DNA from: Ancylonema sp.
Taxonomy: Eukaryota
Assembly: GCA_050230475.1 (NCBI GenBank)
Contig: JBFLGF010000196.1
Location: 1-64,000 of the forward strand
DNA: 64,000 nucleotides
Reading direction: 5' to 3'
Numbering within the stretch: the first letter of the stretch is position 1; each line of letters opens with the position of its first letter. A program made the translations under genes and the position numbers. The notes below the pieces were generated by a model that was given only the letters and a program-made list of their open reading frames with translations, was not told the DNA's origin and did not search any database. This document shows positions 1,532 through 60,086 of this stretch, one piece after another.

Positions 1532-2086
1532 TAGGGCTGTGAACGTTACCGTGACGCTTACGTTTGACGGTGAATTTACGCGTCATTTTGACGCGTAATG
1601 ACGCACACCCTCGGTAACGTTACGAATTACATCGATTCACTACTTTTGGTCATGACGGGCCCGGCATTGCCGTTACCCTGGCAAAAACGTAATCGTAAGT
1701 GTAATCGTACACATACCGTACATAACCGTACACATGCTACACGAAAAAAATCGTATGTCAAGCGTACGTTGTATACATATATGTACAGTAAAATACAAAT
1801 TTACTTTTCCGTACATTTTTTTGTTTCAATGTAAGATAGTACTTGTGAGTAAACACGTGCGATCATTGAACTCGAACAAGTCCGTACGCTTTTATTGGTA
1901 CGTTTTTACACGTGTGACAATGGAAATCCCGGCTTGATATCGACATATCGCCGAAGCTTCGTGTCTTAAATGGCCGAGCGTACAGTGACGCTTCCTGAAT
2001 TCCAAATTACGCGGTTTACGCGTAATCACGTTAATGGTCGGTAATTACGGGGACGAAATCCCAATTACGGTGATTTCACAACCCAA
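1532..2086. mobile_element. Non-autonomous hAT-like element/MITE
   Basis: Termini TAGGGCTGTGAA...TTCACAACCCAA. Flanking 8-mers AGTGAACG (1524-1531) and AGTGTACG (2087-2094) match 7/8. Many TTACG/CGTAA subterminal motifs. Confidence 0.7.
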
Positions 2087-2214
2087 AGTGTACGCCATAC
2101 GCCACACGTCCGACATCATCTAATGTCACGCATCATTACGCCTCCGTGGTTTGGTGTAGTATAATGTGATAACGGAGGGACTGCGGGCACCCCCCAAAGC
2201 GACTGCGGGCACCC

Positions 2215-3456
2215 TCTCATGCCGTTAGAGATCGTTATAAATTAAAGTCTTTTTAATTGTTGATCCGCTTGAAAATTAGCAATTTTGGTTATTGTCGATT
2301 TTTAGTCGTTATATCGAACTATATCGTTATATGAGTTTCGATCGGTCAGACGTTTGATTTGATAATTTTATTATACTCAGTCAATCTAGAAAAGCCGGTG
2401 TACCACTTTTTATATTTTAATTCGGAGTATTTATGTCGTATCGACGAGTTAGTAGATTCCCAATGCGCGCCGAGCTTTATCTCAGTCAGCTAGCCTGGCG
2501 TTTGAACCGCCGCACGTGTTAAATCCAGAACTAGAACAGACAGTCACGATTAGCTGTCTAGTCGATATTTTTTTTCAACCATAGATCAAGATAAGATCTA
2601 GATTACCGCGCGTGTGAAACGGCGCGTCGATTGTACTAAAGCCTAAGTCGCTTTCTTCTGAACTGCCAGCTTCCCGCAGGCAGTTTACGCTGTCTGAATT
2701 TCAACAACTCTTTGCAATCGCCATCTTTGCAATCTATGTGAATTCGTGTATTCTGCAATCGTCAACAATCGTTATCAAGTGTGCCGTTTCGCTTTGATAT
2801 TCTCTATGAATTTCTGCAAACTTCGCGTCGCTCCATCAGCCGTAAGTTCTGTGAAATTGCGTGTTTGCTTGTGCGTGCTGTCGCATCTCAAGTAGTACAA
2901 AAAGCCGTGTGCCGTTTTGCATACGCATCGTGTGAAATTCTGCCGTAGTCAGAATTATCGTTACCCTTGCAAAATCGTGACCCTTGCAAGTCGTTGATTG
3001 TTAGCCGTTTTGCTGACGTCAAAAATCGTTACAATTAGCTGCACCGTTTCGTGCGAGCTCAGTCAGACAATGCACCCTTTGAATTGCCTGCACCCGTTCC
3101 AGATATTGTGAATTGTTTTATTCACGACAACGTTTGATTCCCGACACCAATAGTGAGTACGCACCCCGTCGCAACCAACTATCATTCATTGTGCACCCTT
3201 GTAGAAATTCTATAGCTATTTGCCTTACGTTCTTTTTATTCGTAGCTGTCACCTGTTGTGAAATACGATAACCTCCAACGCGTGATTAACCTTAGTGTTG
3301 TTTCTAGACCTCCCACCACTAATCGTTGAGTGCATCTCAGCTTTCGGCGAGTAGTAGCTACGGCAAACTTCGTTGATAAGTCACATACCGTGCTTGAATT
3401 ACATTCTTTTGTGGTCAGTAGGGATTCAACCTACACCAATCTACTCTAAACTAACA
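2215..3456 (+). repeat. Repeat A1 (LTR 3' portion)
   Basis: Near-identical to 12208-13446 along its length. Ends CTAACA, followed by AGCGGAAGAGC, possibly an eroded TGGTATCAGAGC primer site. Confidence 0.9.
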
Positions 3457-3714
3457 AGCGGAAGAGCTTCTTTACATCGAGGTCTGCAGTTTTCGACACG
3501 TACGAAACCATTTTATTTTATTTTCCAACCCCGTGACCTGTCACCCCTGGTTATTCTCAGCACCGTGGCTTTGGACATATACCATACGAATACTGGCATA
3601 GTAATAACTGTCGATCGAAATCGACCGCAACCAAAGAAAACATTTATGGATTACCTCACCGGCGTACTAGATTTTGGCATTCTAGTGTGTGCAGATTGAT
3701 TGATTGATTGATTG

Positions 3715-4624
3715 TGGTGAAGATTGTGGCGGTGTTCAAGCGGTTCAGCAGCTCAAGTATGAGGGGTAGGGGGCAGCGGTTTTTTATTGTGACCGCGTTG
3801 AGGCCTCCGTAGTCCACACAGAGCCGCAACTTGCCATCGGGCTTCTTAATGAACATCACAGGTGCTCCTCCTGAGCTGGTTGAAGGCCTGATGAACCCAT
3901 TTACAAGGTTGGCTGTTATGTAGGCTTTCAAGGTAGCCAACTCCGGCTCGGAGAGGGAGTAGATCGGCCCCCAAGGTGGATCTTTCCCGGGCAGGAGGGA
4001 AATCTCGAGGTCATACGGGCGGTGGGGGGGAAGGGTGTTTGCAGCCTGCTCCGAGAACACATATGCGAAGTCGTGGTACGCCGGGGGGAGCTTGGCGAGG
4101 ATGGCTGGATCGGGGGGAGGGGGGAGGACAGCGGCTAAAACTGCTGGTTTGGGTAAGGGAAGGGGAGGGGAGGGGGGGGGGGGAGGGAGGCTAGAGACCA
4201 GGCGGTCTGTTGCACAAAGGAGGCTCGTGAAGGACACCTATCCCGCCACCCAGTCGATTGTAGGGTTATGTTCGTGGAGCGAGGGAAACCCCAGCACCAT
4301 AGAGTAGTGGGCCAGACGGGTCACGTCCAGATGCAAGGTCTCGATGTGGTCACCCGGGCATCTGACCTTGGCATCGTAGTAGCAGGTGATAGGGCCTGCT
4401 GCGGGTGGAGTGCCAGCGACCAGTTCGACCGGGATAGGTTGGGGGTGGGGTTGGGTGATCAGGTTATGGTTTTCGAGGAGGGAGGGGTCCACGAAGTTTC
4501 CCGATGCCCCACAGTCGACGAGAGCGACGACGGTAATAAGGGGGAGGGGGTATTGGAGGAGTTGGATGGAAATGGTGAGTTGGCGGGGAGTGGAATGGGG
4601 GGAGGGTGGGGAAAGGGAACCCAA
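3715..4624 (-). pseudogene. Ty3/gypsy pol fragment (protease plus RT N-terminus), with an in-frame stop between the two ORFs
   Basis: ORFs 4238-4624 and 3656-4237 are consecutive in one frame. RT homology stops at IFTTI, before the catalytic DD motif. Confidence 0.85.
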
Positions 4625-4682
4625 ACAGACCCCTCCTAGGACTGAGTGGGGGAGTCGTTTTTTGGCTCCTCAGGCTGCAGAT

Positions 4683-5735
4683 CTAGGAAGCGCACGGATC
4701 TGGACTGGCTTTTGTTGGGACAGTGTGCAAGCACGTGGCCGGCCAGACCACAATAGTGGCACAGATTGCCCTCCTTGCGTCCGGCCGACTCTGTGGGCTG
4801 CAACTTGAGGACCTGGCGGCGGGTCCCATCGATGTCCATGGCGCCACCGAAAGGTGAGGGGGGATTCTGCTGAGGGGGGATCTGATCAGCAGCTCTAGCC
4901 TGGGGGGGGCGTAGGTTAAGCACAAGGGTTTGTCCAGGCGAGCAGCAGCCAGGGCGTTTTCTATGTTCGTCACAAAGGTAACATACTCCGAGAAGGTTTC
5001 ATGGGGTGTCTGAACCTTCAGGATCTCTTGCCGCAGCTCGGGCTTCAGCCTTTCAAAGTAAGTGAAGATTATAGGATGATCTCCCCACCCTTGAAACCCC
5101 CTGACTAAGGTTCTGAACTTGGCGGTAAAGTCCTGAACTGCCCTTGTCTGCTTGAGTTCACGCAGCTGGCGTTCCTTGGTCAGGTTGGAGGGGATGTCGC
5201 CAAAGGACTCACTCAGACCTGCTAGGAGGTTGTCCACATTATAGATAGCGGGAAGGTTTCCTTTTGGATCATGTTGCTGAGTGAACCACTCGCCAGCAGC
5301 ACCAATTAGGAAGGAGGAAAAGTAGAGGACCGTATGGCCAGGATCGGAGAATCTGATAGGAGCCACCCGGATCCGGGTGCGCACTAGCCATAGGAAGGTA
5401 GCCAAACTTGCAGAATCGCCAAAATACTTGTGTAGATCAGGAAGGACCATTTGTGAAGGGGCTGGCTGGTAGGCTGGTTGATAAACAGGGACAGGCTGTG
5501 GGATAGGTGGGGGTTGGGCTGAGATAGGAGATGGGGTGCTGAGGTGCGCCTCCACCACCTTTTGTTTCTCATTAAACTCATTGGATTGAGCAAATAAAGT
5601 CGTGATTTTTTCATCTGTTTTGGCGTGCCGTTCCATATTTTCACTCATTTGCAAACTCATGGCGTTCAAAGTCTCCATAATTTGTTGCATCTCCATGAGG
5701 AAGAATGTGAAACCCCCGGAAAAAACGGCGGCCAA
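4683..5735 (-). pseudogene. Ty3/gypsy gag (retrotransposon capsid domain), frameshifted before the zinc knuckle
   Basis: SSFLIGAAGEWF and LRELKQTRAVQDFTAKFR..LKPELRQE are typical retrotrans_gag segments. The knuckle lies in another frame. Confidence 0.8.
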
Positions 5736-7609
5736 AAAATGAGGTTTTGCCTAAAGAAGAAGTTGGAAAATCCCAATTGTATTCCTATCAAAGTGTTAGG
5801 AGTGGAATAAAACGGAACTCCTAGCAATCTATGTTGCAAGTGCACACACAAGGCAATGACGAAATGAGCCGATAGGATGGAGGCCAATGAGCCGATGATC
5901 AAATGGTTTGGTTGTTATGGTAGGCACAACAAGGTACAAGTACATGAGTTGATAGGAATGCTCTAGAGGCATTCCTATCGGCTAGATATAGGAAAGTCGG
6001 CCCTAGCCGACTCTGGGAACAAATGTGGGATAAATAAGTCAAGGGCGGCTAAGTACACACAGAATGTGGCTAAAGGCACAACTGCCATGACTAAGGACAC
6101 AACAGAATACTCCCTAGGGGCCAGGCGCGGCCGCTAGGGACACAAGTCTCACTATAAAGGGGGAAAACTCGTTATAGGGAAATATGCTCTAGTAGCGCTC
6201 TAGCGCTAACTGTGGGGACCTCGTTAGGGAGCCCTAGTGACTGTAGCGAGGGTCCTAACAAAGAGAGCGAGTCAGAATCTCACCATTCATGTTGATGCTT
6301 CACCCCGTGCAGGTGCAACCATAACCGAGTGGGATAGCCGTGAGACACCAACTTCGTACATGCATCGTCCCATCACCTCATCTCTGGCCTACCTAGAGAA
6401 CCAGGCGAAAGAAAGCACCAATCTCACCCCTAGTGAGACACACAAGGTACTTTACCCTGATCTCCCGGCTCATTATATGATGGCACCACGTCGCTCACCC
6501 AGAGTTGCAGCCATTGTAGACAAGGAAGGACAGAGAGAGGAACGAAGGAAAAATAGTGCTAGAGTCGTTGTCGATGTCAGCACACCCATGCATTCGGCAA
6601 ATCAGGGCTCATCTAGTGACGGTGAAGAACAACAGACTAAAGAACGGTCTCCTTCACCCACTATATATCCAGACACTCCAATTTACCAAGATGCATAGTC
6701 AAAACCAGGGGAGTACCCCACTCCTCACCCTGAAACATTGTTGGAAACCGTTGCTAGAGAAGGAGAAGACTATGGTCGACGACAGGGATACAACACCAAA
6801 ATGTCTGATTCTTTCGAACCACATTTCCCTTTGCAACTGGAACCAGGTACTACCAGAATGCAGCACATGAATGATTCAGATGTGCCACCACCCTTACCCT
6901 TGGCTAAATGTAATACATCGCCACAGGGCAATATAAATAACGTTATTAGCGAATAACAAACACATACGACTCGAACGTAATCGACACGCTATATCCTCAG
7001 ACTGCACCAGCTAGAGATTGTTCAATCAATGAATGAGTGAAAGCTCTGCAGGCTGCGGCGTGTATGTTTGAAGGCGGAGCTCACGATCGAATCGTGCACA
7101 AGCTCATGTTCCGTTGAGGGAAAGCTCCCTCAGCTGACACCGGTTAGCCCAGGCCACTGGAAAGCTCTACGAGCTCAAATGGTCGATGCAGGATGGAATC
7201 CGCAAACGACGGTTGACTTGCGTCATGTACGGCTGAATCCGTACGAATGAACGGGGATTTTGACCCGTCAAAGGACCCGTCGAAATACTAGACAGTTACC
7301 GGCTCCATGCGGGGGCGGTAATATATAATATTAAACAAGTATTAATTGGCGCAACCTTGCGCCAAGTATTAATAATACTTAGGCGGGGCGCAGGCCCGAG
7401 GCCAGCGTCCCTCTCTATAAGCAACTCTGCTTATAGGCGCAATCAATAATTAACTTAATTATCGACAAAACAAGAGTAATGTACGAGTGCACACGTCACT
7501 CCGTTACACTAAAGCTCAAATTCACCATGATCGTCTTCATGAAATTTTGATGCAGCAACGCGCCATGGTTCAGGGAACGGAGTCAGCACTCTAGGAGGCA
7601 GCCGATCTG

Positions 7610-8200
7610 GTGAACTTCATGCAAGACCCTGCAAACGCCCGTACCACCAACCCCGACTTCCTCAAGGACTCAGCCCGACTACCTGCTCACCACAACCGGC
7701 TGGCGAAGCATTACGGCATCACCATGTTGCCTTACCGACGAGGTGTTCTCCTCGTAGGCGATGTGAAACCCGTGGAGAATGTATTAGACACTGGTGCCAA
7801 AGAAACCATGATTGGCGCCAACCTCACCAAACTCCTCCAACTCTCACCCGCTGACCTGCACCCCGGAGCACCATATATTACAGCGTCAGGAAAGACAGAG
7901 TTGAGTTTGGGTAGTACCAAGGAGAAGATTCCCATTACCATTGGGGAAGGCACTGCTCACCCTTGCACTGTGCATCTTCACCTCCATCTGTCACCATCGA
8001 CGGAGTTTGACATCATCCTTGGCAACTCGTTTATTTGCCCGATGGGAGGATACCCTGATTCGTGGGCCGAGACATACATGTATCGACCAGACTTCCGGAC
8101 GGGAGGACATTGTTTGGCAGGCGTCCCTATTGCCATACATGAGACTCACGACACTCCGGCGATCTACATGGCGCGCAAGAAGCAGTTTGCGCATCCTCCC
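7610..8200 (+). pseudogene. Retroviral-type aspartic protease remnant
   Basis: VLDTGAKETMIG, TASG flap and FDIILGNSF are the three conserved retropepsin segments. Confidence 0.75.
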
Positions 8201-10269
8201 GGCTCCAACCGTCGAGGACTTTGGAGTCAGCATACTACACCGACAAAAGCAGAGGACGAGTGCGTCTTCGATGACGACGACGTCACGGTGGTTCCCACCG
8301 TTGATCCCACACCACTCCCTCCGGAGGATCCTCCAGCACCTGAAGCACATGGAGTTAACCATTCTTGTACCCTTGGTCACCACCATCGCTGCAACCCTGC
8401 CACCACCTCCTGGCGTGGGACCCGACTTCATCACCCCGGTGTCATCTCCAGCACCTCGTTTCTCACCCTCGACTTCACCTCTCTCGGAGTACAATGAACC
8501 ACCTCGCTCTACCCTTAGTCGAGAGTTCGATTCGTACTTCCGAGACACCCCCCAGAAACCACGTTTATCGACAGGTACACATTGCACGGCAAATTAAAAC
8601 ACGGTTATTCACCACGGAATTTGAGTGCAGGTCGTTCTCTCCGCTCACCCGTGTTCCCGACATCCCCATTACATGCGGCGATAGCACCCTCGCAACAAAA
8701 GGAAATTGCTGCACCACCCACTGCATCGATGCAACCACTTCCCCACCCGTTACCACCACACCATCGACAGTCAGAGGTACACATTTACCACCCGTCGATG
8801 CATCGCAAACAAAGCCAACACCAATGTACATGTACTTATCTGCTAATGTCGATGCAGCTTCGGTACTTCGAGTCACGGTGCGATCGAAATCTGAGGAGGG
8901 ACCATTACAAGCACCCTTGTCATCTCAGAACCTTGGCAAAGGACAGCAGCAAAACCATCGACAGGAGCAACTTTAACTTGACCTGCTTAACCTCATGGCA
9001 TTGGCTGACCACCTGCACATCGATCGATACGTCGATACCATGCTCCAATGGTTCAACCCAGACATTCAGCTCACCCCGATTGAGCAACTCTACATCATCC
9101 TCACGAGTCCATTTCATGAGCCTCACCACATGACCGTGCCATCGATCGAAGCCATTCGGACTCAAGCTACCTTGGATCGAGTGAAGAGGGAGAAAGCGGT
9201 CAAAGATAAACTCACCGCTGAACTCCGTGCTCTACTTCGGCAAGAGTGGGACGCAGACAAGGAAGCCGATCGCATCCAAGATGCCGAGGACACTACACCA
9301 GTAGACAAACCAACGGGCGATAACGTTGACGCAGAGTTGCTAGCGGGCCGTCAACGCGAAATCGACAACCTTGCTGACGATCTGCAACAAGCCAACCACA
9401 CCATCTTCAACCAGGCTGCGGCATTGCGGGCGAAGGAAGATGCCATCGCAGTCTACCAAGCGGAGAAGAAGAAGGGCAAAGAAAAAGCGGACCTTGTCGT
9501 GAAGCTAGAACTTTCGGAGTCTGACTCCAACGACAACATGAAGAATGTTCCACCTGCGGGATACAAGCATCGAACCACGGTCACCATCGGAGAGCGCACA
9601 AACCAGTCCGGAGTCCACGCGCGGAGTTGCAGCGTCCTATACATCGACAAAGGACGACTCCCAACCCAAAATCAACCAACGCCACAGCCCATTCCGGTGT
9701 ACTTGACTTTTTCCCGGCGTCCCCCACCATCGACACTCCTCAAGGCCCAACCTTCAGTACCCCCTTTTCTCCCCATCCCTTCCCCGCAGCACAATGCAAC
9801 TCAGTTTGCTCAAGACCAGGCAGCAGTCAACGTTATGGCGACGGCTGCACAACGCCAAATGGCACTCCGTGACTACGACAACTTGCGTGACCCCCGTGAT
9901 GGTGACGACCTCGACAAACATCGGGCTCGCTACCATCAGAAGTTCCCGTTTTGGAACCCCAAAGATCAGCATCTCGCCGTGCCTGGATATCCTTACCTCA
10001 TCACCCAACGAGTATTGCCTGCAACATTTTCACCCCAGCAGTTAGTCGAGGAAACTCGGAGAATCTACACATCCCGTAGCGTGAGTGCTGTCGCCACCAT
10101 CCGCGAGGAGCAACTCACCATGGGTCAACGATTGCTGCGTTTGGGAAACCATAAAATCATGCAGGACTTCACCCTTTCTCCACCCAGGCTTCATTGGAAC
10201 GGACGCAAGTTTCAAGGAGCAAAACCTATGCCAGCCGGCATCGCACCCTTTCACCCGTCCATTCTCAGC

Positions 10270-11230
10270 AAAGGCGTGCACATCTATGAACCATTTGGGG
10301 GATCCGACATCAGCATCCTCTACCTCCACTTGGAATGTGGCGACTTTGTGGGGACTTATACGACGCCGTGTACTTCGCCTGCAAAAAGCTCAACGACAAT
10401 TCCCTGGACAACTCCCCGACAGCGCAATTGCAGGTTGCTGCAGTCGTTTGGGGAGCAACATCATCGAGGAAACGGCAAAACCTGCCTTCACGCGCCTCAT
10501 CAACGAGCGTGGCCAACTCGACATTTTGGGGGGGAATTGGATTAGGGAAACGGAGGTCACCTTTAGTCCACTTAGGAGGGGCTTCGATCACCGTGTGTAC
10601 CCTTTCGTGGCGCTGCTCAAGGTTCTGCAAAACCTTTCAGACATCAGGATCACCCTCCTCGTTACATTCCTTTTCACCCACAGGTTTTTGGCTTCACCAC
10701 CCTGGGTAGCAGAGATGTACCCTTTGGTTACCCCTTTCCTTGGACACCCAACCGTCATCGAGGCAACCGCGGTCAACTCCAACAACCGCCGATCAACCCT
10801 TGTGTGGGAGAACCACATGCCAACCCGCCCTCTCGAAGCTTGCTTGCCTGGTGATACCATTGGATGTCAACTTGTTTACATTTTAGAACCAGGTAATTTC
10901 CCGACACCAGTGCTTGCCAGTGATGTGCAACCCCCGATTGTGAACATTGTTGGGCAACCCCGACGTGCATTCCCACCTATCACCCCATACCCCGACAATT
11001 TTGACTTCACCATTGATCCGGCCACCGGTCACCTAGGCGAGGGCATGGTGTATGAACAACAATCTGGCACCTACATTACACCCTCACCCTATGATCTGGA
11101 ACGTGCCATGGGCTTCACCCCGAGAGCCACCGCAGGATGAGTGGGAATGATCCGCACCTATGCTCAGCGTCGCAGCACCCTTGGTTTGTCCCTCGATCGT
11201 CACGTCACCCACTATCTGGCATCCATCATC
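10270..11230 (+). pseudogene. Degenerate C5 cytosine methyltransferase-like (DNMT3-related, retrotransposon-borne) domain
   Basis: Motif I-like GVHIYEPFGG lies in the frame of ORF 8995. After a frameshift, the frame of ORF 10085 gives QFPGQLPDSAI, LDILGGNW, NRRSTLVWEN, ILEPG, GQPRRAFP and LERAMGFTPRAT. Past a premature TGA (11138-11140) the same frame gives QRRSTLGLSLD (motif X-like). No catalytic PC or ENV is visible. Confidence 0.7.
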
Positions 11231-11989
11231 ATGGAAACCTACAACCCATAGGGACAGCGCCTCACCTCAACTCTCAGGTATTCTCCACCATCCTTGTTGA
11301 GGCAGAAGGCCAACTCAACCAAAGTTTCAATGCATCCTGTCACCCAAGCAACAAAACAAAAATAAGAAACCCGTACAATCAATTCTCCTTGCGCCATTAG
11401 CAATCCCACCACCTGTTAATGACGAACCTTGGAAAACCACCGGTGCATCTTCTATCGCATCTAGCTCACCCCAAACATCGACATCTTCGACAACTATTTA
11501 CCCTTGCTCTCATCCAGTCATCACTCAAGCAGAGTCCCTCGGTGCAAATGCAACCAATTTACTTCAAACTGAAAAAGAAATATTGGAATTTTCGGTAGAA
11601 GTTCCGGATTTAATTTGTCACTCACCACCTCTCTGTGAAAAAACCTCACGGTGTACACCTTGGCGAGTAACCACAGTAGATCCTGACCCTGTGTCAACCC
11701 CTGTTGTCTCACCACATGTCAACAACCCACAGTTTCTCTCAAAACAATTTCCTTCACCCTTGCATGCCATTCAACTACAGTATGACTCAGGCACCTCTCA
11801 TCATGCCTATTACTAGAAACCAATGCAATTTGGACATCCTCACCAACCTGGCCGTGTGTGCATTGCATTTGAGAAAACCTATGTCTCGACAGTGAACAAC
11901 AAGAAACCCGGCATTCTGCAATACATCCTAACCTTGCTCCACATCATCTGTCCATGTGTCCCAGCCTCCGACGCAAAGCTTTCGTAGCT

Positions 11990-12001
11990 AGGGGGGGGGA
12001 G
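11990..12001 (+). other. Polypurine tract
   Basis: AGGGGGGGGGAG immediately precedes the TG that starts repeat B1. Confidence 0.75.
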
Positions 12002-13446
12002 TGAGATCTAGATGATGACCAAATACCCAATCCTGATGCTGCTCATCCATACAAGCAGCCAAGTCATCAACCGACATCCGTCACTTTCATCGACGCAGAA
12101 AAATATAAACAGTCAAGTTTTACATATTTTTCCAATCTCTGTCGATTTCTTTGTTTTTGAGAGATTTCGTCGACACGATGTCTACCGACTCTATCTGGCA
12201 CGTCAGCTGTCATGCCGCTAGAGATCTTTAGAAATTAAAGTATTTTTAATTGTTGATCCGCTTAAAAAATAGCAATTTTGGTAATTGTCGATTTTTAGTC
12301 GTTATATCGAACTCTGCCGTTATATGAGTTTCGATCAGTCAGACGTTTGATTTGATAATTTTTTTATACTCAGTCAATCTAGAAAATTCGGTGTACCACT
12401 TTTTATATTTTAATTCGGAGTATTTTTGTCGTATCGACGAGTTAGTAGATTCCCAATGCGCGCCGAGCTTTATCTCAGTCAGCTAGCCTGGCGTTTGAAC
12501 CGCCGCACGTGTTAAATCCAGAACTCTAGGATAGACAGTCACGATTAGCTGTCTAGTCGATATTTTTTTTCAACCATAGATCAAGATAAGACCTAAATTA
12601 CCGCGCGTGTGAAACGGCGCGTCGATTGAACTAAAGCCTAAGTCGCTTTCTCAACTGTCAGCTTCCGCTATCAGTTTACGCTGTCTCGATTTCAACCACT
12701 CTTTGCGATCGCCATCTTTGCAATCTTTGTGAATTCGTGTATTCTGCAATCGTCAACAATCGTTATCAAGTGTGCCGTTTCGCCTTTGATATTATTTGTG
12801 AATTTTTGCAAACTTCGCGTCGCTCCATCCAGCCGTAAGTTATGCGAAATTGCATGTTTGCTTGTGCGTGCTGTCGCATCTCAAGTAGTACAAAAAGTCG
12901 TGTGCCGTTTTGCATACGCATCGTGTGAAATTCTGCCGTAGTCAAATTATCGTTACCCTTGCAAAATCGTGACCCTTGCAAGTCATTGATTGTCAGCCGT
13001 TTGCTGACGTCAGAAATCGTTACAATTAGCTGCACCGTTTCGTGCGAGCTCAGTCAGACAATGCACCCTTTGAATTGCCTGCACCCGTTCCAGATATTGT
13101 GAATTTTTTATTCACGACAACGTTTGATTTCTGAAACCAATAGTGAGTGCGCACCCCGTCGCAACCAACTATCATTCATTATGCACCCTTGTAGAAATTC
13201 TAAAGCTATTTGCCTTGCGTGTTCTCTTTACTTGTAGCTGTCACCTGTTGTGAAGTACGATAACCTGCAACGCTTGATTAACCTTAGTGTTGTTTCTAGA
13301 CCTCCCACCACTAAGCGTTGAGTGCATCTCAGCTTTCGACGAGTAGTAGCTACGGCAAACTTCGTTGATAAGTCACATACCGTGCTTGAATTACATTCTT
13401 CTTGTGTGGTCTGTAGGGATTCAACCTACACCAATCTCTAACTAAA
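12002..13446 (+). repeat. Complete LTR-like unit B1+A2 (~1.45 kb)
   Basis: Starts TGAGATC after the PPT. B1 and A2 are contiguous (..GGCACGTCAGCTGTCATGCCG..). Confidence 0.85.
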
Positions 13447-13647
13447 TGAGATCGAGATGATGACCAAAGGCCCAATCCTGATGCTGATCATCCAGACAAG
13501 TAGCGTCATCAACCGACATCAGTCACTTTCATCGACGCAGAAAAATATAAAAAATCAAGTTTTACACATTTTTCCAAAATCTGTCGATTTCTTTGTTTTT
13601 GAGAGATTTCGTCGACAGGTTGTCTGCCGACTCCATCTGGCACGTCA
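13447..13647 (+). repeat. Repeat B2 (LTR 5' portion), abutting A2
   Basis: TGAGATCGAGATGATGACC...CTGGCACGTCA is a close copy of 12002-12205. ORF-track peptides at 12012 and 13457 are near-identical. Confidence 0.9.
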
Positions 13648-14479
13648 CCCCCCTCCTTTAAGCCCGCAGTCTTTCCCTTAAAATAAGGTAAGTTCAAAAA
13701 ATCATAGCTTCTAAACGCTTTGCGATGATTGAATTGTTTTTTCTGAGTACTGTAGACAAGACTACGAAGTAAATATTGACATATTTTTCCATATTTTGTT
13801 TCCGATCAATGTGGAGTCAAAAAAAAGGAGAGACTTCGGGCTTGTCGAAGGGGGGTTGCCTGCAGTCGCTTTGGGGGGTGCCCCGATTCTCTCCCATGTG
13901 ATAATTAATTGTTAAAAAAAAAAAAAAAAAAAAAACCTGAGATATACAAAAGAATATTAGACGGGTTAAGATAGGAGGCGTACTTAGTGATGTAAAATCT
14001 CGATTACATGTCGGATTTGAATTTTGAAAAGATGTACATGATCTACGTGATCTTAGGAATCTTCTAGAAAAACAATTTAAGACCCTTATCGAAGACACGG
14101 AAGACGCCTGCCACGCGTCTTCGTCTAGTGCCCTTATTACGCCTTCATTTTTTGTGCCGTAAAGTGATGTGGGTAGCTATTCTTACCAGCTTCAGTTTAA
14201 GCTGCGCCACGTTACGTGATTTTACGAATCGCCTGCGTGGTGATTATCCGTTGGCCTCCGCATTCAAATTACCGCGCCCGGGAAGAAGTCACGCGATCTT
14301 TCCTAAGTGACGCATATCTTGTCCATTCTTGAATTTTTAAAGTTCAGTATGTAGCCCTTTGTAGAGGCTACATTTTAAGCTTAAGTAGGTGTTAGGGGTC
14401 GCCGTATTACTTCCGATATGTCATTTCGTTTTCAGCTGATTTTGGCCAAGTTTGAGACCCTACGGCAACGGCCGGAGGG

Positions 14480-17400
14480 GGAGGGACTCAAGGGTCCCTC
14501 CCCCAGCTTTCAGCTTGGGGTAGGCCTTTGATTTACTGCCCCAACAATTGTGGAAAGCACTATACGAGCGCCGCACGGTTGGCACGTCATGTCGCATCAT
14601 GTGTTCCGGCCACTGCATTGAGTGGAGGAGGCCCCACACATGCTGCTTCAACGGCCCTTCCCCGCCTCCCACCTCCGTCTTCGTGGTCGTGGGCCCTCGA
14701 TACTACACTTTTCGATCCTACTGCCACAGGATTGTGCCAGCCGCGCCTATATCGGAAGATCCCTTATGCCATCCGGGTAGAAGTCCAGCGCGCTTTTGTG
14801 CTTCTGCTCCCTCGCTTGAGGGATGACCTTGGGGATATTGCTGCGAGGAAGGTATTTTTGATGTTCCCTGTTTGGTGCCTTCCCCTCCCATACCACGGGG
14901 GTCAGGTTGGCCATAGGGAAACGAGGCGACGTATTACTCGATTTCTTGGGGGGGATTGGGAATCGCTGCATCATGAGCATATTGCTCGCTGTACCCCGCC
15001 CCCTCAGGAGAGAGGCAGCAGCGGAGGGGGGGGGGCGGGGGAGGGGACGGATGGTGGGAGGAGGGAGGGGGGAAGAAGTGGGGGCGTCGGAGGCACAGTT
15101 GGGGAAGGTGGAGGGGGTGGGGGGAATCTTAAACGTGCGCTTCTCTTGGGAAGGTGTGGTGAGCTGTCGCGGTCAGCTCGGGCCCTAGTGTCACAACCTC
15201 TAGCGCGTGGGACGGAAGAGACTGTGGCACACTGCGTGACCCCCAGCTACTCTCCCAGATCCAGCTGCTCTCCCAGATTTTGTTGGGGATTTCAGGCCTC
15301 CCGACGATTTCATTCTCGAAAGGGACTCATTCGCTGTGGCGTTGCGAGGGCCCCCACGCCATTCTGCTGCAGGGTTGTCGGGAGTGGTGTTTGAACATTT
15401 TCGTGACGTTATCGATCCGGATGACCCTGCTAGTGGTTTTGACCTCTTGTTCCACGTGGCTGCTCATGTTGCGCGGGGTCGCATTCCGGCGTCTAATTGG
15501 GGGCATCTCGGCTGGTGGCGTTGGATAAAGGTGGCGGGAGGGGAGGGGAGGGGTTTTATCGTTTGATTAGCCGTGCGATATGCCTTCAGATCCGGGAGCT
15601 TCACGACCATTTCGAATGGTAGCACGGCTTTGCTTTTAAAGGGGGGTGTGAGATGGTAATCTGGGGGGTACGACTTCTTTTGGACGCGCGTTTATCTTGG
15701 GGTGTCATACAGGTGGACGTGAAGAACGCATTCAACACCATCAACCGCCAGGCGTTCTTCGAGGAGCTTCGTGATTCGGGGGGGGGGTTGAGTAGTTTGT
15801 TCCCGTTTGTGCGAGCTTTTTATGGGGGGTCTTCCCCCTTATTCTTCCGTGCTCGTGATTTGGCGGGGGGGGAGGAGGTAGTGGAGTTGGCGTCTTCGAC
15901 CGGGACTCGTCAGAGGGATCCCCTTGGAGGGGTATTGTTCGCCTTCGGACACCAGCAGGCTCTTCGATCCACCGCAGCGGCGTTTCCGGACTGCGCCTTC
16001 CCTTCAATTGCAGATGACACCCATATCGTGGGGTCCCCTCCCCATGTGGTGGAGGCTTTTAAGTTTTTTGTGGAGGAGCTCGCAAAACTCGGCCTTTCCG
16101 TGCAACCGTTCAAGTGTGTGGCGTGGTCACCATCTGGTCGGGAGGTGTTTCCGATTCTTCCGGAGGGGTGTTCTTATGCTACAGATGGCATTCGTGTGTT
16201 GGGGGCGCCTTTTGGAACGAACGAGTTTGTGCGAGGCTTCTTGGCAGCTGCGTTGGAGGAAGATACGTGGGGTCTTCAACAATTATGCCTCCTTGAGGAT
16301 CCGCAGGTGGCCCTCCGCCTACTTACGCAGGTGTTTGCTCGACCATCGTATCTGCTGCGTACTTGCCACCCTACCTCTTCCTTCCTCAACCAGCTCGGGG
16401 GGGAGTATGATGCGACGCTGTGGAGGGTTGTAGAGGTAGATCTATTGGGCGGGGTGGTTGGTTGCACTTCGGACCATATTGGTTTGTCGCGTGACCAAGC
16501 TTGTTTGCCGATCGCCCGGGCGGGTGTGGGTTTGGTTCGTACTCGGGTTCTTGCCCCAGTTGCTTTTATTGGCTCTTATGCTCTCGCCGCACCTGCACTC
16601 GCATCAGCTTTACAGCAGCACGGTTTATCATTCGGCCCGTTTTTCAGCACGGTGGACGAGGGAGGTCTACGAACGCAGGTCGTGCTTCGAGAAGCGCGAG
16701 AGCTTCTTCACCCAACAGCTCGCGCGGCACTGCCTCCATATGCCACCTTGGCCGTGGCTTCTGTTCCTCACTTGCCGACACTTCTTGATGCTACCTACGC
16801 TGCTCCGTTTGAGGTGCTTGTGGCGAGCACCGATCTCGCGACATCGAGGGCGAGGCTTCGGTCCGCCAGTGGACCCGGTGCGGGTCATTGGCTACAAGCG
16901 TCCCCCATCATTCCCTCCCTTCGTATCCCCCCTCCCCTATTCCTTACTGCCGTGCGCTTGCGCCTCGGGTTTCCCCACTGCCTTGCTACCTATGATACGT
17001 GCGCGTGCGGCAACTCTATGGACGCCCTCGGTACGCATCTTATGCGTGCAGTCGAGGGGGGGAGCGCACTTCATCTCATGACTCGGTGCGAGATTCCGTA
17101 TATCACATCCTCCGCGAGTCGGGTCCGCATGTTCAACGAGAACGTACGGGGTTTCTCTTCCGTCTTCCGCTCCGGGCGGTCGTGGGGGGCGAGTGGATAT
17201 ATTGTTATTTCGGATTTGGTGGAGGGGCATATTTTGGTGGATGTGGTCTCATTGCTCACCCCACGCGGCGTGACTTGGTGGATCTCGCGGCTTGTCGAGG
17301 GTTGGTGGCCGCATAAGATGCAGAACGGCGCAAAGAAACTCATTATCGTGATCGCGCGGCAGGGACCAAGTTTATCCCGTTTGCGTTAGAGGCGTACGGT

Positions 17401-28029: not shown

Positions 28030-31000
28030 CACACTTCAGTACACCGTCTTTTTTTGTCGGCATTAGGACGAAACCGCCTTTTCACCATTTGGCTATCAAG
28101 TAGGCCGGTATGGATTTCAAAACCAAATCTGGGTTCATATCAAATACACGGTCGGAGCGAGGAGCCCAAAAGTAGGCTCGGATCCGGAGCATATACAATA
28201 AAACCCCTACACATAAATCTTCGTTATAAGAAACATTTTGTTATAATAAATTTGAAAAAAAAAACACAGCTTTTGACCCCCCCGGCCAAAACTTCCCCGT
28301 TCTATAATAACAAACCTTGTTATAAGAACCAATCGATCCTTCGCCTATTAATGTCCTTATACAATTCATCCCAATTTCTCCGTAAGAACCGTTTCTAAAC
28401 TCTACAATAATGAAATCGGGTAGGCGAGCTCTTTTTATTCCCGCGGTAAAGTTTATCTCTTCATACGTGATTTACTAGACGGATTCCTTTGGGTGGTACA
28501 AATAGAAAATCACCTTTGCGCGATGTATTGGGTTCACAATTTACGAGAAGTGTTAAACATACATATTCTTCTCAATAAGTTCGTCGTGATTTTTTCAAGT
28601 CTCAAGTTGCTCAACGATGCACACAAGCGTGTTTTGTGGCTAGAAACTGCACATATTTCTTTTGTTTGACACGTTCATCCATTAAAAAACCTAGTGTGGT
28701 TGTTCACAATTATACAAGGTTGCTTCATTCAGGTTGGGTTATGTCTTTAGTTGTTTACGAATATAGTCGGCAAAGTCTTCACCGTGCTCACTGGATTCTT
28801 TCTCTACTTAGTAATAGCCCCTACCCCGTATCACGCAACCCTCTAACCACTACCCACATCTACATCTAGCATTTACATATGTATGTGACACCTATATCTA
28901 GAACTTGGTATCTACATCTAGCGTTTCGGATTTCCATTTCGGCATTATAAGCAACTCTTCATTATCCTACTCAAGCGACACTTTGAAGTTGAAGGCACAA
29001 TTGGTGTACTTTGGCTAGGTCAAGCTAGGCTATGTTGAAAATCTATACCTGTTTTCTTTTCCAAACATTCGTTTCCCCTCATCTCGCCTATGCCTCGAAG
29101 GGCCAGCATTGCAAGCGGCCTACAAATAGAAAGTAAGAATATATCGAAATATGATTCAAAAAAATGATGGCTTGGATAACCATGGCCTCGTTTGGAGGAA
29201 CAGGGATGTGATTTCGGGCCTCTTTAATATATGTGGCAAATGTACGATCTGGAGTCCGAGGCGGCAGAGGTAGAGTGGCGACGGGAAGAGAAAACGGCCG
29301 AATAAAAACAAACAAAAGAGGTGATGACCAAGTGTGCCACCACCGCCGAGGTGCATACCGAGTGGGTCATAGCGGCCAGGTTGAAGGTTAGCGAGGCGGC
29401 CACGAGGCGAGAAGAATCCGGTGAACAAAACGAGGCTCGGGATTGTAGATTAAAAAATAGTCACCCACATAATATTGTAAAAAACAATTTGGTTGCATGT
29501 TGGAGGAAGCCAAGGAGTAGGAGAGGAACGACTGCATTCTTTAATCTAGAGCAAAAAACGGGACAAAAATCGAGCTACATCTAGTGGGTATTGTTGGTCG
29601 AAAGAAAGACAAAATCGGAGTGTTAAGTACCATGAGGGGAGATGCAGCACGAGATAAATGTGGCACCACGCCGTTCTCAGCCGGTGTCCTCGTCGGTGGT
29701 TGTGGCAAACATCCCATAGCAAAGACGGTTGTCGAGCTTCATCCGGTTTTGGGATGATAAAATCAAAACTGGATTTGGTTGCGATTCAAAGGAAGTGAAC
29801 AAACCTAAGGTGAGTATGCGCTTGCGGGTTATTTGAAGGTGTGGAGCGGTAGTCAATAGCAATGCAATGAGCACTTTCGAACTCCCTTAGGATTGTGCTT
29901 TAATGAACATGTTTTGCGATTTTCTACGGATTATATATATATATATATAAAAAAGGCCCAAAATCACTTTTCTATTTCCCCAAAACGAGCCATGGTTATC
30001 CTAACCGGATCTTGTTTCAATCATACGTCAATATAATTATTGCCTAACTTCCCTTTTGCAGGCTGTTTGCAATGTCGGCTCCTCAAGGTATAGGCGAGAC
30101 GAGGGGAAACGAATGTTTGGAAAAGAAAACACGTAAAGATTTTTAATATAGCCTAGCTTGACCTAGCCAAAGTACACCAACTGTGCCTTCATCGTCAAAG
30201 GTTTTTTAGCAACTCCTTATTCTCCTACTCAAGTGTTCCCAATCTTTAACGGTGAAGGCAAAGTTGTGGTATTTGTTGGAGTCTTGGCTAGGCTAAGCAA
30301 AGCTAGGCTATGTTGTAATCTCAACCTCTTTTCATTTCCAAACATTCGTTTCCCCTCGTCTCGCCTATACCTCGAGGAGCCGATATTGCAAGCGGCCTGC
30401 AAAATGAAAACTAGGCAATAATTATACAGACATATGATTATTTAATTTTAAAAAAAACAAAAAAAAAACGGTAAGGATAACCATGGCTCATTTTGTGGAA
30501 ATAGAAAAGTGATTTTGCGACTTTTTTATATATATATTTTTTCGTAGAGAATCGCAAAACATGTTCATCAAAGCACAATCCTAAGGGAGTGCGAAAGTGC
30601 TCATTGCATTGCTATTGACTACCGCTCCACACCTTCAAATAACCCGCAAGCGCATACTCACCTTAGGTTTGTTCACTTCCTTTGAATCGCAACCAAATCC
30701 AGTTTTGATTTTATCATCCCAAAACCGGATGAAGCTCGACAACCGTCTTTGCTATGGGATGTTTGCCACAACCACCGACGAGGACACCGGCTGAGAACGG
30801 CGTGGTGCCACATTTATCTCGTGCTGCATCTCCCCTCATGGTACTTAACACTCCGATTTTGTCTTTCTTTCGACCAACAATACCCACTAGATGTAGCTCG
30901 ATTTTTGTCCCGTTTTTTGCTCTAGATTAAAGAATGCAGTCGTTCCTCTCCTACTCCTTGGCTTCCTCCAACATGCAACCAAATTGTTTTTTACAATATT

Positions 31001-32600
31001 ATGTGGGTGACTATTTTTTAATCTACAATCCCGAGCCTCGTTTTGTTCACCGGATTCTTCTCGCCTCGTGGCCGCCTCGCTAACCTTCAACCTGGCCGCT
31101 ATGACCCACTCGGTATGCACCTCGGCGGTGGTGGCACACTTGGTCATCACCTCTTTTGTTTGTTTTTATTCGGCCGTTTTCTCTTCCCGTCGCCACTCTA
31201 CCTCTGCCGCCTCGGACTCCAGATCGTACATTTGCCACATATATTAAAGAGGCCCGAAATCACATCCCTGTTCCTCCAAACGAGGCCATGGTTATCCAAG
31301 CCATCATTTTTTTGAATCATATTTCGATATATTCTTACTTTCTATTTGTAGGCCGCTTGCAATGCTGGCCCTTCGAGGCATAGGCGAGATGAGGGGAAAC
31401 GAATGTTTGGAAAAGAAAACGGGTACAAATTTTTAATATAGCCGAGCTTGACCTAGCCACAATACACCAACTGTGCCTTTATCGCCAACGTGTTGAAATA
31501 CTTGAGTAGGAGAATAAGTAGTTGCTTACAATGCCGATACGTCATTCCGAAACGTTAAATGTAGATGCTAAGTTCAATATATAGATGTCATGTAAAAATA
31601 TAAATGCGGGTAGTGGTTATAGGGTCGCGTGATATGGGGTGGGGGCTATCACAAACTAAAGAAACACTCTAGTGATTACATTGAATAATATCCCGACCAT
31701 ATCGATAAGTAGCGAAAGCCATATCGAACTATGATCCGAAAGAAAACGACCTAGTACACTTGTAAACAAGCCCAAAGTTTCTCAAAGGATGAGCGTATCA
31801 AGTAAAATAATATTGTCAAATATGCGAGCCACAAAAAACGCTCGATTTTTAACGTTGAGCAACGAGTAACTTGAAAAAATCACGACGAAATTATTCATAA
31901 GAATATGTATGTTAAATAATTATCGTAAAATTGTTAACCCAAAGTGTCGGGCAAAATCGATTTATAATACGTACCACCCAAAGGATTTCGTCGATTAAGT
32001 GATGTGGATGGAAACATAAATCTTATCGCGGGAATGAAAGAGCGCAAAATATTACTCGGCTCCCCAAATTTCAACAGCTTTGAACGGACTTCAAAATAGA
32101 AATTGTGATACATTATGTAAGGATATCAATCGTATTAATTTAATACGCGAAATATTGATTGATAAATGCAACATAGTTTCTTGGAGCATTTTTTTCCAAT
32201 GGTTTTATTGGAAGATTTACCCGTATCATAACTTATGATACATTTTAAAAAAAATCGAAAAACAACAGAAGTCTTATGATTCATAAGACTTCTCTATTTG
32301 TTTGTTTCTTATAGCAAGGTTTTGTATGCCTAAACGGGAAGGTTTTGGGGGGGGGGGTAAAAATCCGAGAAAAAAATTGATGTCAACCAAATGTATCTGG
32401 TAACGAAGTTTTGTGTATCGGAATTGTACTATAGATGCTCCGGATCCGAGGTCACTTTTGGGCTCCGCTATGTGATCGTAGGTTTGGGCTCGGATCACCA
32501 CCGGATGTGAGCCCGGATCGGACTTGAAAAAAAAAAGGGGGTAGAGAGGTAGTTGCGTTCTGCTGCCAACAAAAGAAGATGGTGAACATTTCAGAGTTGG
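28030..32600. repeat. ~4.6-kb quasi-palindrome (foldback-like), centre ~30235
   Basis: Four mirrored ORF pairs have identical translations (29088/31156, 29156/31043, 29321/30887, 29677/30597). Diverged inverted similarity continues outward, e.g. GAGCCCAAAAGT..CGGATCCGGAGCAT at ~28162 versus ~32435-32465. Confidence 0.9.
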
Positions 32601-33174: not shown

Positions 33175-33680
33175 TAGGGATGCGCTCCCCCGTTTATAAT
33201 GAAGAAGAATATGGTGCATATGTCCCGCCCCCCGCCCCTCGTCCCTCGTTGACGGGGGGACACCCCGGATCAGGGTATCCAAGCTGTATAGGTTGTCAAA
33301 ATGGGGACCTAGCTGAAAACGGGGGATACGAGGGGCTATTCGGCGGATTACGATGGACACAGGGGAGGAAACGGCGGAAAACGGTGCGCACAGTGGAGGA
33401 CCCGGGGGAACGAATAGGGGTCGCCGTTGATTCCGTGCATCCAACAACTGAAAGGCCAGAAAGACCTAAGACCCGATACCCCATGTCCCCCCGTAGTCTC
33501 CCACGTGTCCCCCGTTCTTTTTATGTTTCTCTTGTAGCCTCCCCCGCATACCCCGATTTCCCGTTTCCCCAAACTGCGGATGCGTCCCCCGCATTACCCC
33601 GTATTTTGAGAATAAGCATGCGGCGGATCCCTCATAATGGGACGGGGGACGGGGGAGCCGGAGAATGGGGGAGCACCATT
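33175..33680. mobile_element. Degenerate MITE-like element beside the copia 3' LTR
   Basis: TAGGGATGCGCTCCCCC versus GGGGGAGCACC, with GTCCCC/GGGGAC subterminal repeats. No TSD found. Confidence 0.4.
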
Positions 33681-34128
33681 TAAGCTTTTGAGTGATTAGA
33701 CGTGCAGGGGATTTGGTGGGCGACAAAACGAACCGTACGCAAAAGGATCTCTATCACTGATGATCAACGAGACAGGAGTTGCGTGAATGGAACGAATTAA
33801 TTATTGTGATCGCATCGGGGATGGTAATACCCGATGCGTTTTACATGTCGTTGTGTGCCGACGGTCGGTACAATTGACCGTCGGCCTATCGCTGAGTGAA
33901 CTCATCTACGTGTCAACGGCACCTATGCCGGACACTCCTGACACGACTAAAACAAACAAATCACGACACGTAAAGCAATAACGACTCTAAGTGTCGACAA
34001 CAGATCAGGTGCCCGGACACAATCGTGCCCGGCCCCGCATATAAGCACATCTAGGAAATTGCTCCCGGTTAGAGTACGGTTACAATTGGACTAGCAAGCA
34101 TAAAGTATGCTATCCAAATATTCCAACA
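33681..34128 (-). repeat. copia 3' LTR
   Basis: Direct repeat of 39758-40207. Minus strand reads TGTTGGAA...AAGCTTA. Confidence 0.92.
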
Positions 34129-39740: not shown

Positions 39741-39755
39741 CGTGGGCCCATAAAC
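39741..39755 (-). other. Primer-binding site complementary to the anticodon arm of initiator tRNA-Met (half-tRNA primer)
   Basis: Minus strand reads GTTTATGGGCCCACG two bases after the LTR. The plus strand reads GTGGGCCCATAA, as in tRNA(iMet). Confidence 0.75.
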
Positions 39756-39757
39756 TT

Positions 39758-40207
39758 TAAGCTTTTGAGTGATTAGACGTACAGGAGATTTGGTGGGCGA
39801 CAAAACGAACCGTACGCAGGATCACTATCACTGATGATCAACGAGACAGGAGTTGCGTGTGTGGAACGAATTAATTATTGTGATCTGATCGCATCGGAGA
39901 TGGTAATACCCGATGCGTTTTACATGTCGTTGTGTGCCGACGGTCGGTACAATTGACCGATGGCCTATCGCTGAGTGACAACTCATCTACGTGTCAACGG
40001 CACATGCCGGACACTCCTGACACGACAAAAACAAACCAATCACGACACGTCAAGCAATAAATAACAAGTGTCGACAACAGATCAGGTGCCCGGACACAAT
40101 CGTGCCCGGCCCCGCATATAAGCACATCTAGGAAATTGCTCCCGGTTAGAGTAACGGTTACAATTGGACTAGCAACATAAGGTATGGCTATCCAAAATAT
40201 TCCAACA
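39758..40207 (-). repeat. copia 5' LTR
   Basis: Direct repeat of 33681-34128. Confidence 0.92.
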
Positions 40208-40554
40208 CCCTTCTCTTGGACTAACTATTCGGGTCTTAGGCCTAACTATTGTGGCCCTCGTCCTGTGTATTTTGGTTCGAATCCTGACTATTCTTGTCCT
40301 AATCCTGACTATTCAAGTCCCATGCCTATTCGTGTGTCCTAGTAATGGTTATGGTTACGGTTATAGAGAAAACATGGTAAAGGAAGCACAATGGGAACCC
40401 CATCTACCAGACTTAGAGCTCCAAGAGTTGCTGATGATACGACATATGATCGTGAGGAGCCGTCTACACTAGGGGCATCCGGGACTCACCTCAATGAGGA
40501 TGAACTCCGAGATGTAACTCGTTGTCTGACAGTGAGTCACCATGAATACTACCA

Positions 40555-57284: not shown

Positions 57285-60086
<2,802 letters not shown>

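Follow-up and report, generated by a model that had tools for sequence, protein, structure and literature searches.

KnitGypsy-Dnmt3 of the alga Klebsormidium nitens combines DIRS-type repeats (A-coding-B-A-B) with Gypsy domains, according to the legend of Fig. 4 in de Mendoza et al. 2018 (PMC5890265). In the portions of that paper covered here, its termini, target duplication, primer, and mechanism are not described. The element that we analyzed lies at positions 2215 to 13647 of a 64,000-nucleotide stretch of DNA, referred to below as the window, which comprises positions 1 to 64,000 (forward strand) of contig JBFLGF010000196.1 from Ancylonema sp. (GenBank assembly GCA_050230475.1). It resembles KnitGypsy-Dnmt3 in its repeats and in having a protease followed by a Dnmt3-like domain, but it is without reverse transcriptase (RT), RNase H, and integrase, its DNA methyltransferase (DNMT) catalytic motifs are changed, and it contains a nested Gypsy fragment. 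Because the layout is present in KnitGypsy-Dnmt3, the permuted arrangement with Gypsy domains is not new; it is in print once, for one alga, and in the portions covered it stands without a mechanism. A search of titles and the beginnings of abstracts in the open literature found no paper on the mechanism of permuted-end Gypsy elements; the main supplement of PMC5890265 may describe ends.

Three other groups of elements share individual features with the window element, as described in the relevant sections of the papers cited. PAT, TOC, kangaroo, Ngaro, and VIPER have the same A1-B1-A2-B2 split direct repeats (PMC4157794, PMC6681497). However, they encode a tyrosine recombinase, whereas the relatives of the window element encode an rve integrase, and a purine tract, TG..CA ends, and the loss of a 2-bp spacer further set the window element apart. 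Thus, with these elements it shares the layout only. In foamy virus, integrase cleaves the palindrome at the junction of two long terminal repeats (LTRs) behind the CA of each strand, and the resulting 2-nt 5' overhangs are like those of processed ends (PMC1180852). That palindrome arises afresh when the ends are joined, and the provirus is colinear, whereas the palindrome of the window element is an inherited one, 204 bp into U3, and hence the insert is permuted. Self-priming Gypsy elements of the Tf1/Tj1 type lack a tRNA primer site and have a primer site complementary to the 5' end of their own RNA, as in the candidate site of the window element, where the RNA 5' end is presumed (PMC4600332). 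They differ in having conventional paired LTRs, and the window match, of 8 plus 4 bp, is a candidate. Chlamydomonas Gypsy-7a was rejected as a precedent, its LTRs being near-conventional in the account given in PMC9940879.

The best reading of the window element is that ordinary LTR reverse transcription leads to a two-LTR circle, which integrase then cuts at an attachment site inside U3. We give this reading a probability of about 0.55. The Gypsy-Dnmt3-type family with permuted ends is abundant and of high copy number. The element, its end repeats, and the miniature inverted-repeat transposable element (MITE) that received it are laid out as follows.

2164 to 2172, unstranded: left copy of the 9-bp target duplication of the host MITE (ATGTGATAA), identical to 13896 to 13904
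2173 to 2214, plus strand: left arm of the host MITE, split by the retroelement (inverted repeat with 13854 to 13894, 85%)
2215 to 3454, plus strand: A1, the left end of the element, presumably R and U5 behind the final ~48 bp of U3 (93.9% to A2)
11990 to 12001, plus strand: polypurine tract directly before B1, from the junction sequence
12002 to 12205, plus strand: B1, presumably the first 204 bp of U3, with TG start and CA end (90.7% to B2)
12197 to 12216, unstranded: internal attachment-like palindrome centred on CA-GC-TG, with the GC spacer at 12206 to 12207 (8/10 pairs)
12208 to 13445, plus strand: A2, the remainder of the complete 3' LTR, with TG start (repeat alignment; one contig of metagenome X5 starts at 12208)
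13446 to 13447, unstranded: A2-B2 join, the putative end-to-end junction of linear cDNA, with one extra base and non-palindromic
13447 to 13647, plus strand: B2, the right end of the element, CA-terminated (repeat alignment)
13648 to 13895, plus strand: rest of the host MITE, including the right arm (inverted-arm alignment)
13896 to 13904, unstranded: right copy of the MITE target duplication (ATGTGATAA), identical to 2164 to 2172

The A-coding-B-A-B split direct repeats claimed in an earlier note on this DNA were confirmed at the positions given there. A1 (2214 to 3442) and A2 (12207 to 13437) are 93.9% identical over 1238 alignment columns, and B1 (12002 to 12205) and B2 (13447 to 13647) are 90.7% identical over 204 columns; no further copies of A or B occur within the window. 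Two complete terminal LTRs are not present, the left end being without B and the right end carrying an additional B. This order supports the geometry suggested before, that of a circle with two LTRs opened within one of them. The view that B plus A is one ordinary LTR also gained support from the purine run adjoining the TG at 12002. A had been thought to end at a CA at 3456; the likeness between A1 and A2 is there, but it stops at 3454. The first bases of A1 are TC and those of A2 are TG. Judged by Kimura two-parameter distances of 0.048 for the A pair and 0.084 for the B pair, a gap that is borderline (Fisher p = 0.055), the insertion is an old one.

The element arrived as one unit. The inverted arms of the MITE (41 nt, 85% alike) show a likeness that continues across the insertion and resumes after 13648; therefore, 2215 to 13647 entered after the MITE, and its ends are A1 and B2. 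The arms and the identical 9-bp flanks show that the host MITE with terminal inverted repeats and a 9-bp target duplication on both sides is real, and the continuing likeness of the arms upholds the proposal that everything from A to B came in together. With slashes marking the boundaries, the junctions read CACCC/TCTCATG on the left, CACGTCA/GC/TGTCATG internally, and CACGTCA/CCCCCC on the right. CACCC does read at both junctions (2210 to 2214 and 13646 to 13650), as the earlier note had it, but B itself ends with the CA of the right-hand copy, and B1 has it too; therefore, what the two flanks have in common beyond the element is just CCC. CACCC occurs 187 times in the window, counted over both strands. 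Candidates for the target duplication in the C-run match at 3/3 (CCC), 3/4, or 4/5 (CACCC versus CCCCC) positions. The GC spacer is absent from both ends of the window copy, which read CC/TC and CA/CC.

Contigs from public sequencing runs place the same breakpoint throughout a family. Fourteen of 15 runs contain part of 11800 to 13460, and four were compared: X1 and X2, which are one sample and possibly the window's own source, and X3 and X5, which are metagenomes of two other studies, X5 being from a glacier. In X1, 10157 contigs align to 11500 to 13445. The contig-end figures come from 24 of 752 loose-end entries, so that the tallies for left ends, and for conventional ends if there are any, are too low. 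At least 46 X1 contigs depart from the reference after 12205, with a flank agreement of just 0.37, as do at least 2 X5 contigs. Among the ends listed, one X5 contig begins at 12208 behind unrelated DNA, the X5 end letters are GA/TG and CA/CA without the GC spacer, and the X5 flanks are without CACCC. The end of A repeatedly precedes B, with 8 of the 12 lettered joints listed jumping from 13434-13437 back to about 12000. Because of the contig ends at 12205 and 12208, the termini of the family are TG-A and B-CA. The right end shared by these X1 and X5 contigs bears out one part of the first of two options left by the earlier note, the fixed intra-LTR breakpoint of a family. The habitats and the relatives make a streptophyte alga the likely host. 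Summed X1 contig depth over A, B, and the inner stretch from 11500 to 11954 stands at ~12:6:1; this depth, which is not a copy number, hints at many short A-B units.

Three signals appear to place ordinary LTR reverse transcription on B plus A, namely the purine tract, a TATA box with its associated duplex, and the point at which the likeness of A2 to A1 stops. The latter two involve the following features.

2236 to 2241, plus strand: TATAAA, candidate core promoter, the sole TATA- or polyA-type hexamer found in A1
2264 to 2279, plus strand: candidate transcript 5' end and self-primer (8-bp helix, then 4 bp after a bulge), from the best duplex between A1 and the A1 border
3451 to 3462, plus strand: candidate primer-binding site, complementary to 2264 to 2279, with core 3455 to 3462 (duplex and junction table)

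The best duplex between windows of A1 and the A1 border pairs 2259-2280 with 3451-3462 at -16.9 kcal/mol, 23 nt downstream of the TATA box. At the TATA-proximal place it was equalled by 0 of 150 shuffles and by 3 of 340 interior windows. No TGG-type primer site was found after A1, and the stretch there, previously regarded as a possible eroded tRNA primer site, makes a better candidate for self-priming of the Tf1 type. No Rfam match was found in 2000 to 14000; therefore, there is no tRNA-like part in that interval. The A2 counterpart of the TATAAA reads TAGAAA; at 12264 most contig depth reads G, as in A1. The likeness of A2 to A1 stops one base before the candidate primer site, and then come one base and the TG of B. 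The A2-B2 join thus falls at the point where joining a linear cDNA end to end would place it. The join of the window copy has ~6 to 7 more A-end bases than the common join, and these match the continuation of the same copy's A1 as far as the candidate primer site.

The place at which the circle would have been opened is a palindrome. The B1-A2 palindrome scores 8 of 10 pairs, a value reached by 2 of 1651 centres in B1-A2-B2 (shuffled-position rate, 0.00044), and the A-B join scores 0 to 2 of 10. None of the integrated ends seen retains the GC at its centre, which is the state expected after processing by an integrase.

The coding remnants point to the enzyme that might do this. The aspartic protease and the Dnmt3-like domain belong, on the evidence of the protein comparisons below, to Gypsy-Dnmt3 polyproteins.

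7595 to 8497, plus strand: aspartic protease frame of the family, with its domain at ~7739 to 8131 and the motif LDTGA (PF13650, E 1.6e-6; 108 relatives)
8977 to 10290, plus strand: open reading frame between the protease and the DNMT-like domain
10270 to 11230, plus strand: Dnmt3-like domain with a frameshift near its start and with its PC and ENV motifs of catalysis altered (tblastn E 3e-21 to P0115)

When the 54 frames of at least 60 amino acids inside the element were all scanned against Pfam, two proteases and one gag were matched; RT, integrase, and recombinase were matched by 0 of the 54. Neither Pfam nor tblastn found an RT, RNase H, or integrase of the element's own in the window copy. 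The PF13650 match confirms the aspartic protease noticed earlier. An exhaustive protein search gave the 108 relatives of the protease, which include gag-protease-DNMT polyproteins and one Klebsormidium nitens protein; PF00145, a C5 methyltransferase domain, follows the protease in 5 of the 24 that were scanned. Word-based searches among longer proteins with the window DNMT-like frame and protease gave no matches.

A search with the DNMT of one relative, P0054, yielded 47 proteins, and 44 of these match the Dnmt3-like domain of the window, which has no direct Pfam match. The earlier note had set a tyrosine recombinase (PF00589) against an rve integrase (PF00665) in the relatives; PF00589 is listed in 0 of the 47 and PF00665 in 21. 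Its rule that finding an rve integrase would reduce this copy to an accident fails, since an rve clade and fixed permuted ends co-occur here and, according to the Fig. 4 legend of PMC5890265, in Klebsormidium. When the domains of 12 relatives were rescanned, rve was found in 7. P0132 and P0136 run protease-DNMT-RT-RNase H-integrase and so have the protease-RT-RNase H-integrase order of Ty3/Gypsy, whereas P0148, P0150, and P0140 have the DNMT between RNase H and integrase. The Gypsy assignment follows from this domain order in the relatives, with no RT tree behind it. D-D-E spacing is present in 4 of 6 checked, and a DDE integrase is the likely cutter of the circle.

The window copy itself would not supply that integrase. 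Its DNMT-like domain aligns GNWIR to GWPCQ and has lost ENV, whereas all 16 of the best-scoring relatives of this domain keep the PC and ENV motifs; therefore, it is a derived, likely inactive relative. Because rve is absent from these 16 best matches, RT-less forms or split frames are common in the group. Many relatives end after the DNMT, including Marchantia Mp4g09160 and Mp8g17980. The pattern used for the PC motif is narrow, matching 3 of 21 rve-bearing relatives and 27 of 47 overall, and nothing was drawn from its misses. As judged from its coding content, the window copy is a non-autonomous or deleted relative, a dead copy; it would work as the KnitGypsy-Dnmt3 family does but does not qualify as an autonomous member.

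These observations suggest a four-step scheme. Transcription would start ~50 bp inside A1, after the TATA box, with the RNA extending to A2. Because the start would lie inside A1, the loss of B from the left end would cost no transcribed sequence. The 5' end of the RNA would then self-prime the minus strand just after A1, in the manner of Tf1, and the purine tract would prime the plus strand, giving a linear BA-inside-BA product. Joining of the ends of this linear cDNA would produce a two-LTR circle with an A-B junction. Finally, a DDE integrase acting in trans from an autonomous relative would make staggered cuts in CA-GC-TG, behind the CA of each strand; the 2-nt GC overhangs would be lost, and insertion of the TG..CA ends would create a short target duplication. 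If the circle were opened at the site in the 5' LTR, the result would be A-inside-BAB, a form that could be transcribed again. We infer all four steps.

Several points weigh against this scheme. The circle, the transcript, and the integrase reaction are all inferred. Target duplications of Gypsy elements are usually 4 to 6 bp, whereas the one here is ambiguous in the C-run, and the opposite arm of the MITE favours 2 to 3 bp, which would be shorter. Left ends rest on two cases, the window copy and one X5 contig, and X1 is possibly the window's own source. Equals of the self-priming duplex turned up somewhere in A1, with no TATA prior, in 39 of 150 shuffles, the TATA of A2 is changed, and the best duplex of A2 lies elsewhere. 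A recombinase in a separate frame of the relatives would escape the domain listing. The link between an integrase and permuted repeats on one molecule comes from the figure legend of PMC5890265. Seven of the eight X1 A-B joints listed are within 1 nt of one length, and such uniformity fits an inherited junction as well as it fits precise joining.

The last point leads to the strongest competitor, in which the family and its DDE integrase are the same but the A-B junction is inherited. B2 would be read through, strand transfers of the PAT/Ngaro type would rebuild A..BAB, and the palindrome would be cut on linear, lariat, or multimeric cDNA. One X5 contig with the same join as X1 adds to the uniform joints in its favor. 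However, the longer join of the window copy, with extra bases that continue its own A1 to the candidate primer site, counts against an inherited junction, and the purine tract and primer site are placed as ordinary LTR reverse transcription needs. We consider an inherited junction unlikely, although it deserves serious weight.

A second possibility is that the element is PAT-, kangaroo-, or Ngaro-like, or a passenger of such elements, and that a tyrosine recombinase brought it in by way of a short shared core, for instance CACCC. What defines PAT, Ngaro, and VIPER, in the sections cited, is the layout A1-B1-A2-B2 (PMC4157794, PMC6681497), Dnmt3-bearing DIRS-like elements of Symbiodinium have the same layout in the account of PMC5890265, and a palindromic junction suits a recombinase site. 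Yet a recombinase was found neither in the 54 frames of the element nor among the 47 relatives, 21 of which have rve. Conservative recombination inserts through a shared core. It should keep the GC at one end, and the absence of the spacer from the ends seen therefore counts against a tyrosine recombinase. CACCC was also rejected as the core: the right-hand CA is B's own and, as far as the few lettered ends go, the X5 left flank is without it and the X1 right flanks agree poorly. The site-specific recombination at CACCC that the earlier note had entertained is therefore unsupported, and this explanation as a whole is improbable.

Very little speaks for a one-off capture of a two-LTR circle from a conventional BA..BA Gypsy element, or for a later rearrangement of one. 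The window copy is old and internally rearranged, and conventional ends may sit among the other 728 of the 752 loose-end entries. Against this, at least 48 contigs from two studies share the terminal CA, the end of A turns up before B again and again, the break coincides with the palindrome, and the layout recurs in Klebsormidium, as far as PMC5890265 describes it. Because the breakpoint is family-wide, the one-off option of the earlier note is disfavored. DNA-level cut-and-paste movement of A..B by its TG..CA ends, with the locus a tandem dimer of one long (A-inside-B) and one short (A-B) unit, can almost be set aside: the imperfect inverted ends and the excess depth of A (~12x) and B (~6x) over the inner stretch suit it, but it leaves the purine tract at the border of the inside and B1 and the retrotransposon protease without a role, and short A-B units would also arise from A1/A2 recombination or from cutting both palindromes of a circle.

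Searches for further copies by pattern were unproductive. A 15-nt pattern from the B end (114 stretches in viral contigs) and a 21-nt pattern (3 in metagenomes) were rejected: blastn of these 117 loci gave one 24-bp match to the window, and the pattern matches are therefore chance. Neither P0054 nor an alignment of 17 proteins found a locus when viral contigs were searched.

The interior of the element is a mosaic with a nested fragment of another Gypsy family, which we take to be Tf1/Tcn1-like.

3674 to 6260, minus strand: nested, 3'-truncated Gypsy of another family (PF03732, PF13650; start of RT by tblastn)
4241 to 4669, minus strand: protease of the nested element (Pfam)
4686 to 5750, minus strand: gag of the nested element (Pfam)
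5794 to 6260, minus strand: LTR of the nested element, 467 bp, TGTTAGGA..TCCTAACA, with an 11-nt self-primer match

The gag, protease, and RT start of this fragment span 3674 to 5750 on the minus strand. Interrupted frames at 6260 to 6960 (plus strand) resemble the start of a gag-like protein, have no Pfam match, and could be a remnant of the family's own gag. An AT-rich noncoding stretch with short hairpins lies at 7260 to 7500, between the nested pieces and the protease frame. The frame at 8977 to 10290 had no Pfam match and no match to the relatives. A by-eye impression that 3457 to 3710 is Copia-like had no Pfam support, and three weak candidates for further solo LTRs with target duplications in 6260 to 10300 were not accepted.

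Elsewhere in the window, a remnant of a non-LTR-type retroelement lies to the right of the MITE (14456 to 17389, plus strand) with a weak C2H2 finger and an RT match (PF00078, E 9e-8). A 3.6-kb foldback with internal subrepeats occupies 28428 to 32043, matching its own reverse complement at 85.5%. On the minus strand, 33679 to 40208 hold a Copia-type element whose LTRs are 92.6% alike, with a frame for a copia gag (PF14223). Pieces of host genes on the minus strand encode an adenosine-deaminase (editase) domain (48061 to 48834) and a katanin p60 MIT domain (59115 to 59696).

Split direct repeats are generally taken as the mark of tyrosine-recombinase elements, and two-LTR circles are generally seen as by-products, a dead end for most retroelements. 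We tentatively propose, at somewhat less than even odds, that in this green-lineage Gypsy clade the integrase attachment sites have moved from the cDNA ends into U3, where a ready-made CA-GC-TG junction may lie just upstream of the promoter, and that the two-LTR circle is an obligate substrate for integration. With split repeats, a DDE integrase, and a palindrome with a lost spacer in one high-copy family, circle-dependent integration becomes open to direct test through circle sequencing and oligonucleotide substrates. Programs that go by repeat layout, whether LTR finders or DIRS classifiers, would overlook or misclassify families of this sort in the genomes of algae and bryophytes. If the proposal is true, split direct repeats would be the footprint of a circle-first, cut-inside-the-LTR route, whichever enzyme cuts, and the clade would model a step between LTR retrotransposons and PAT/Ngaro elements.

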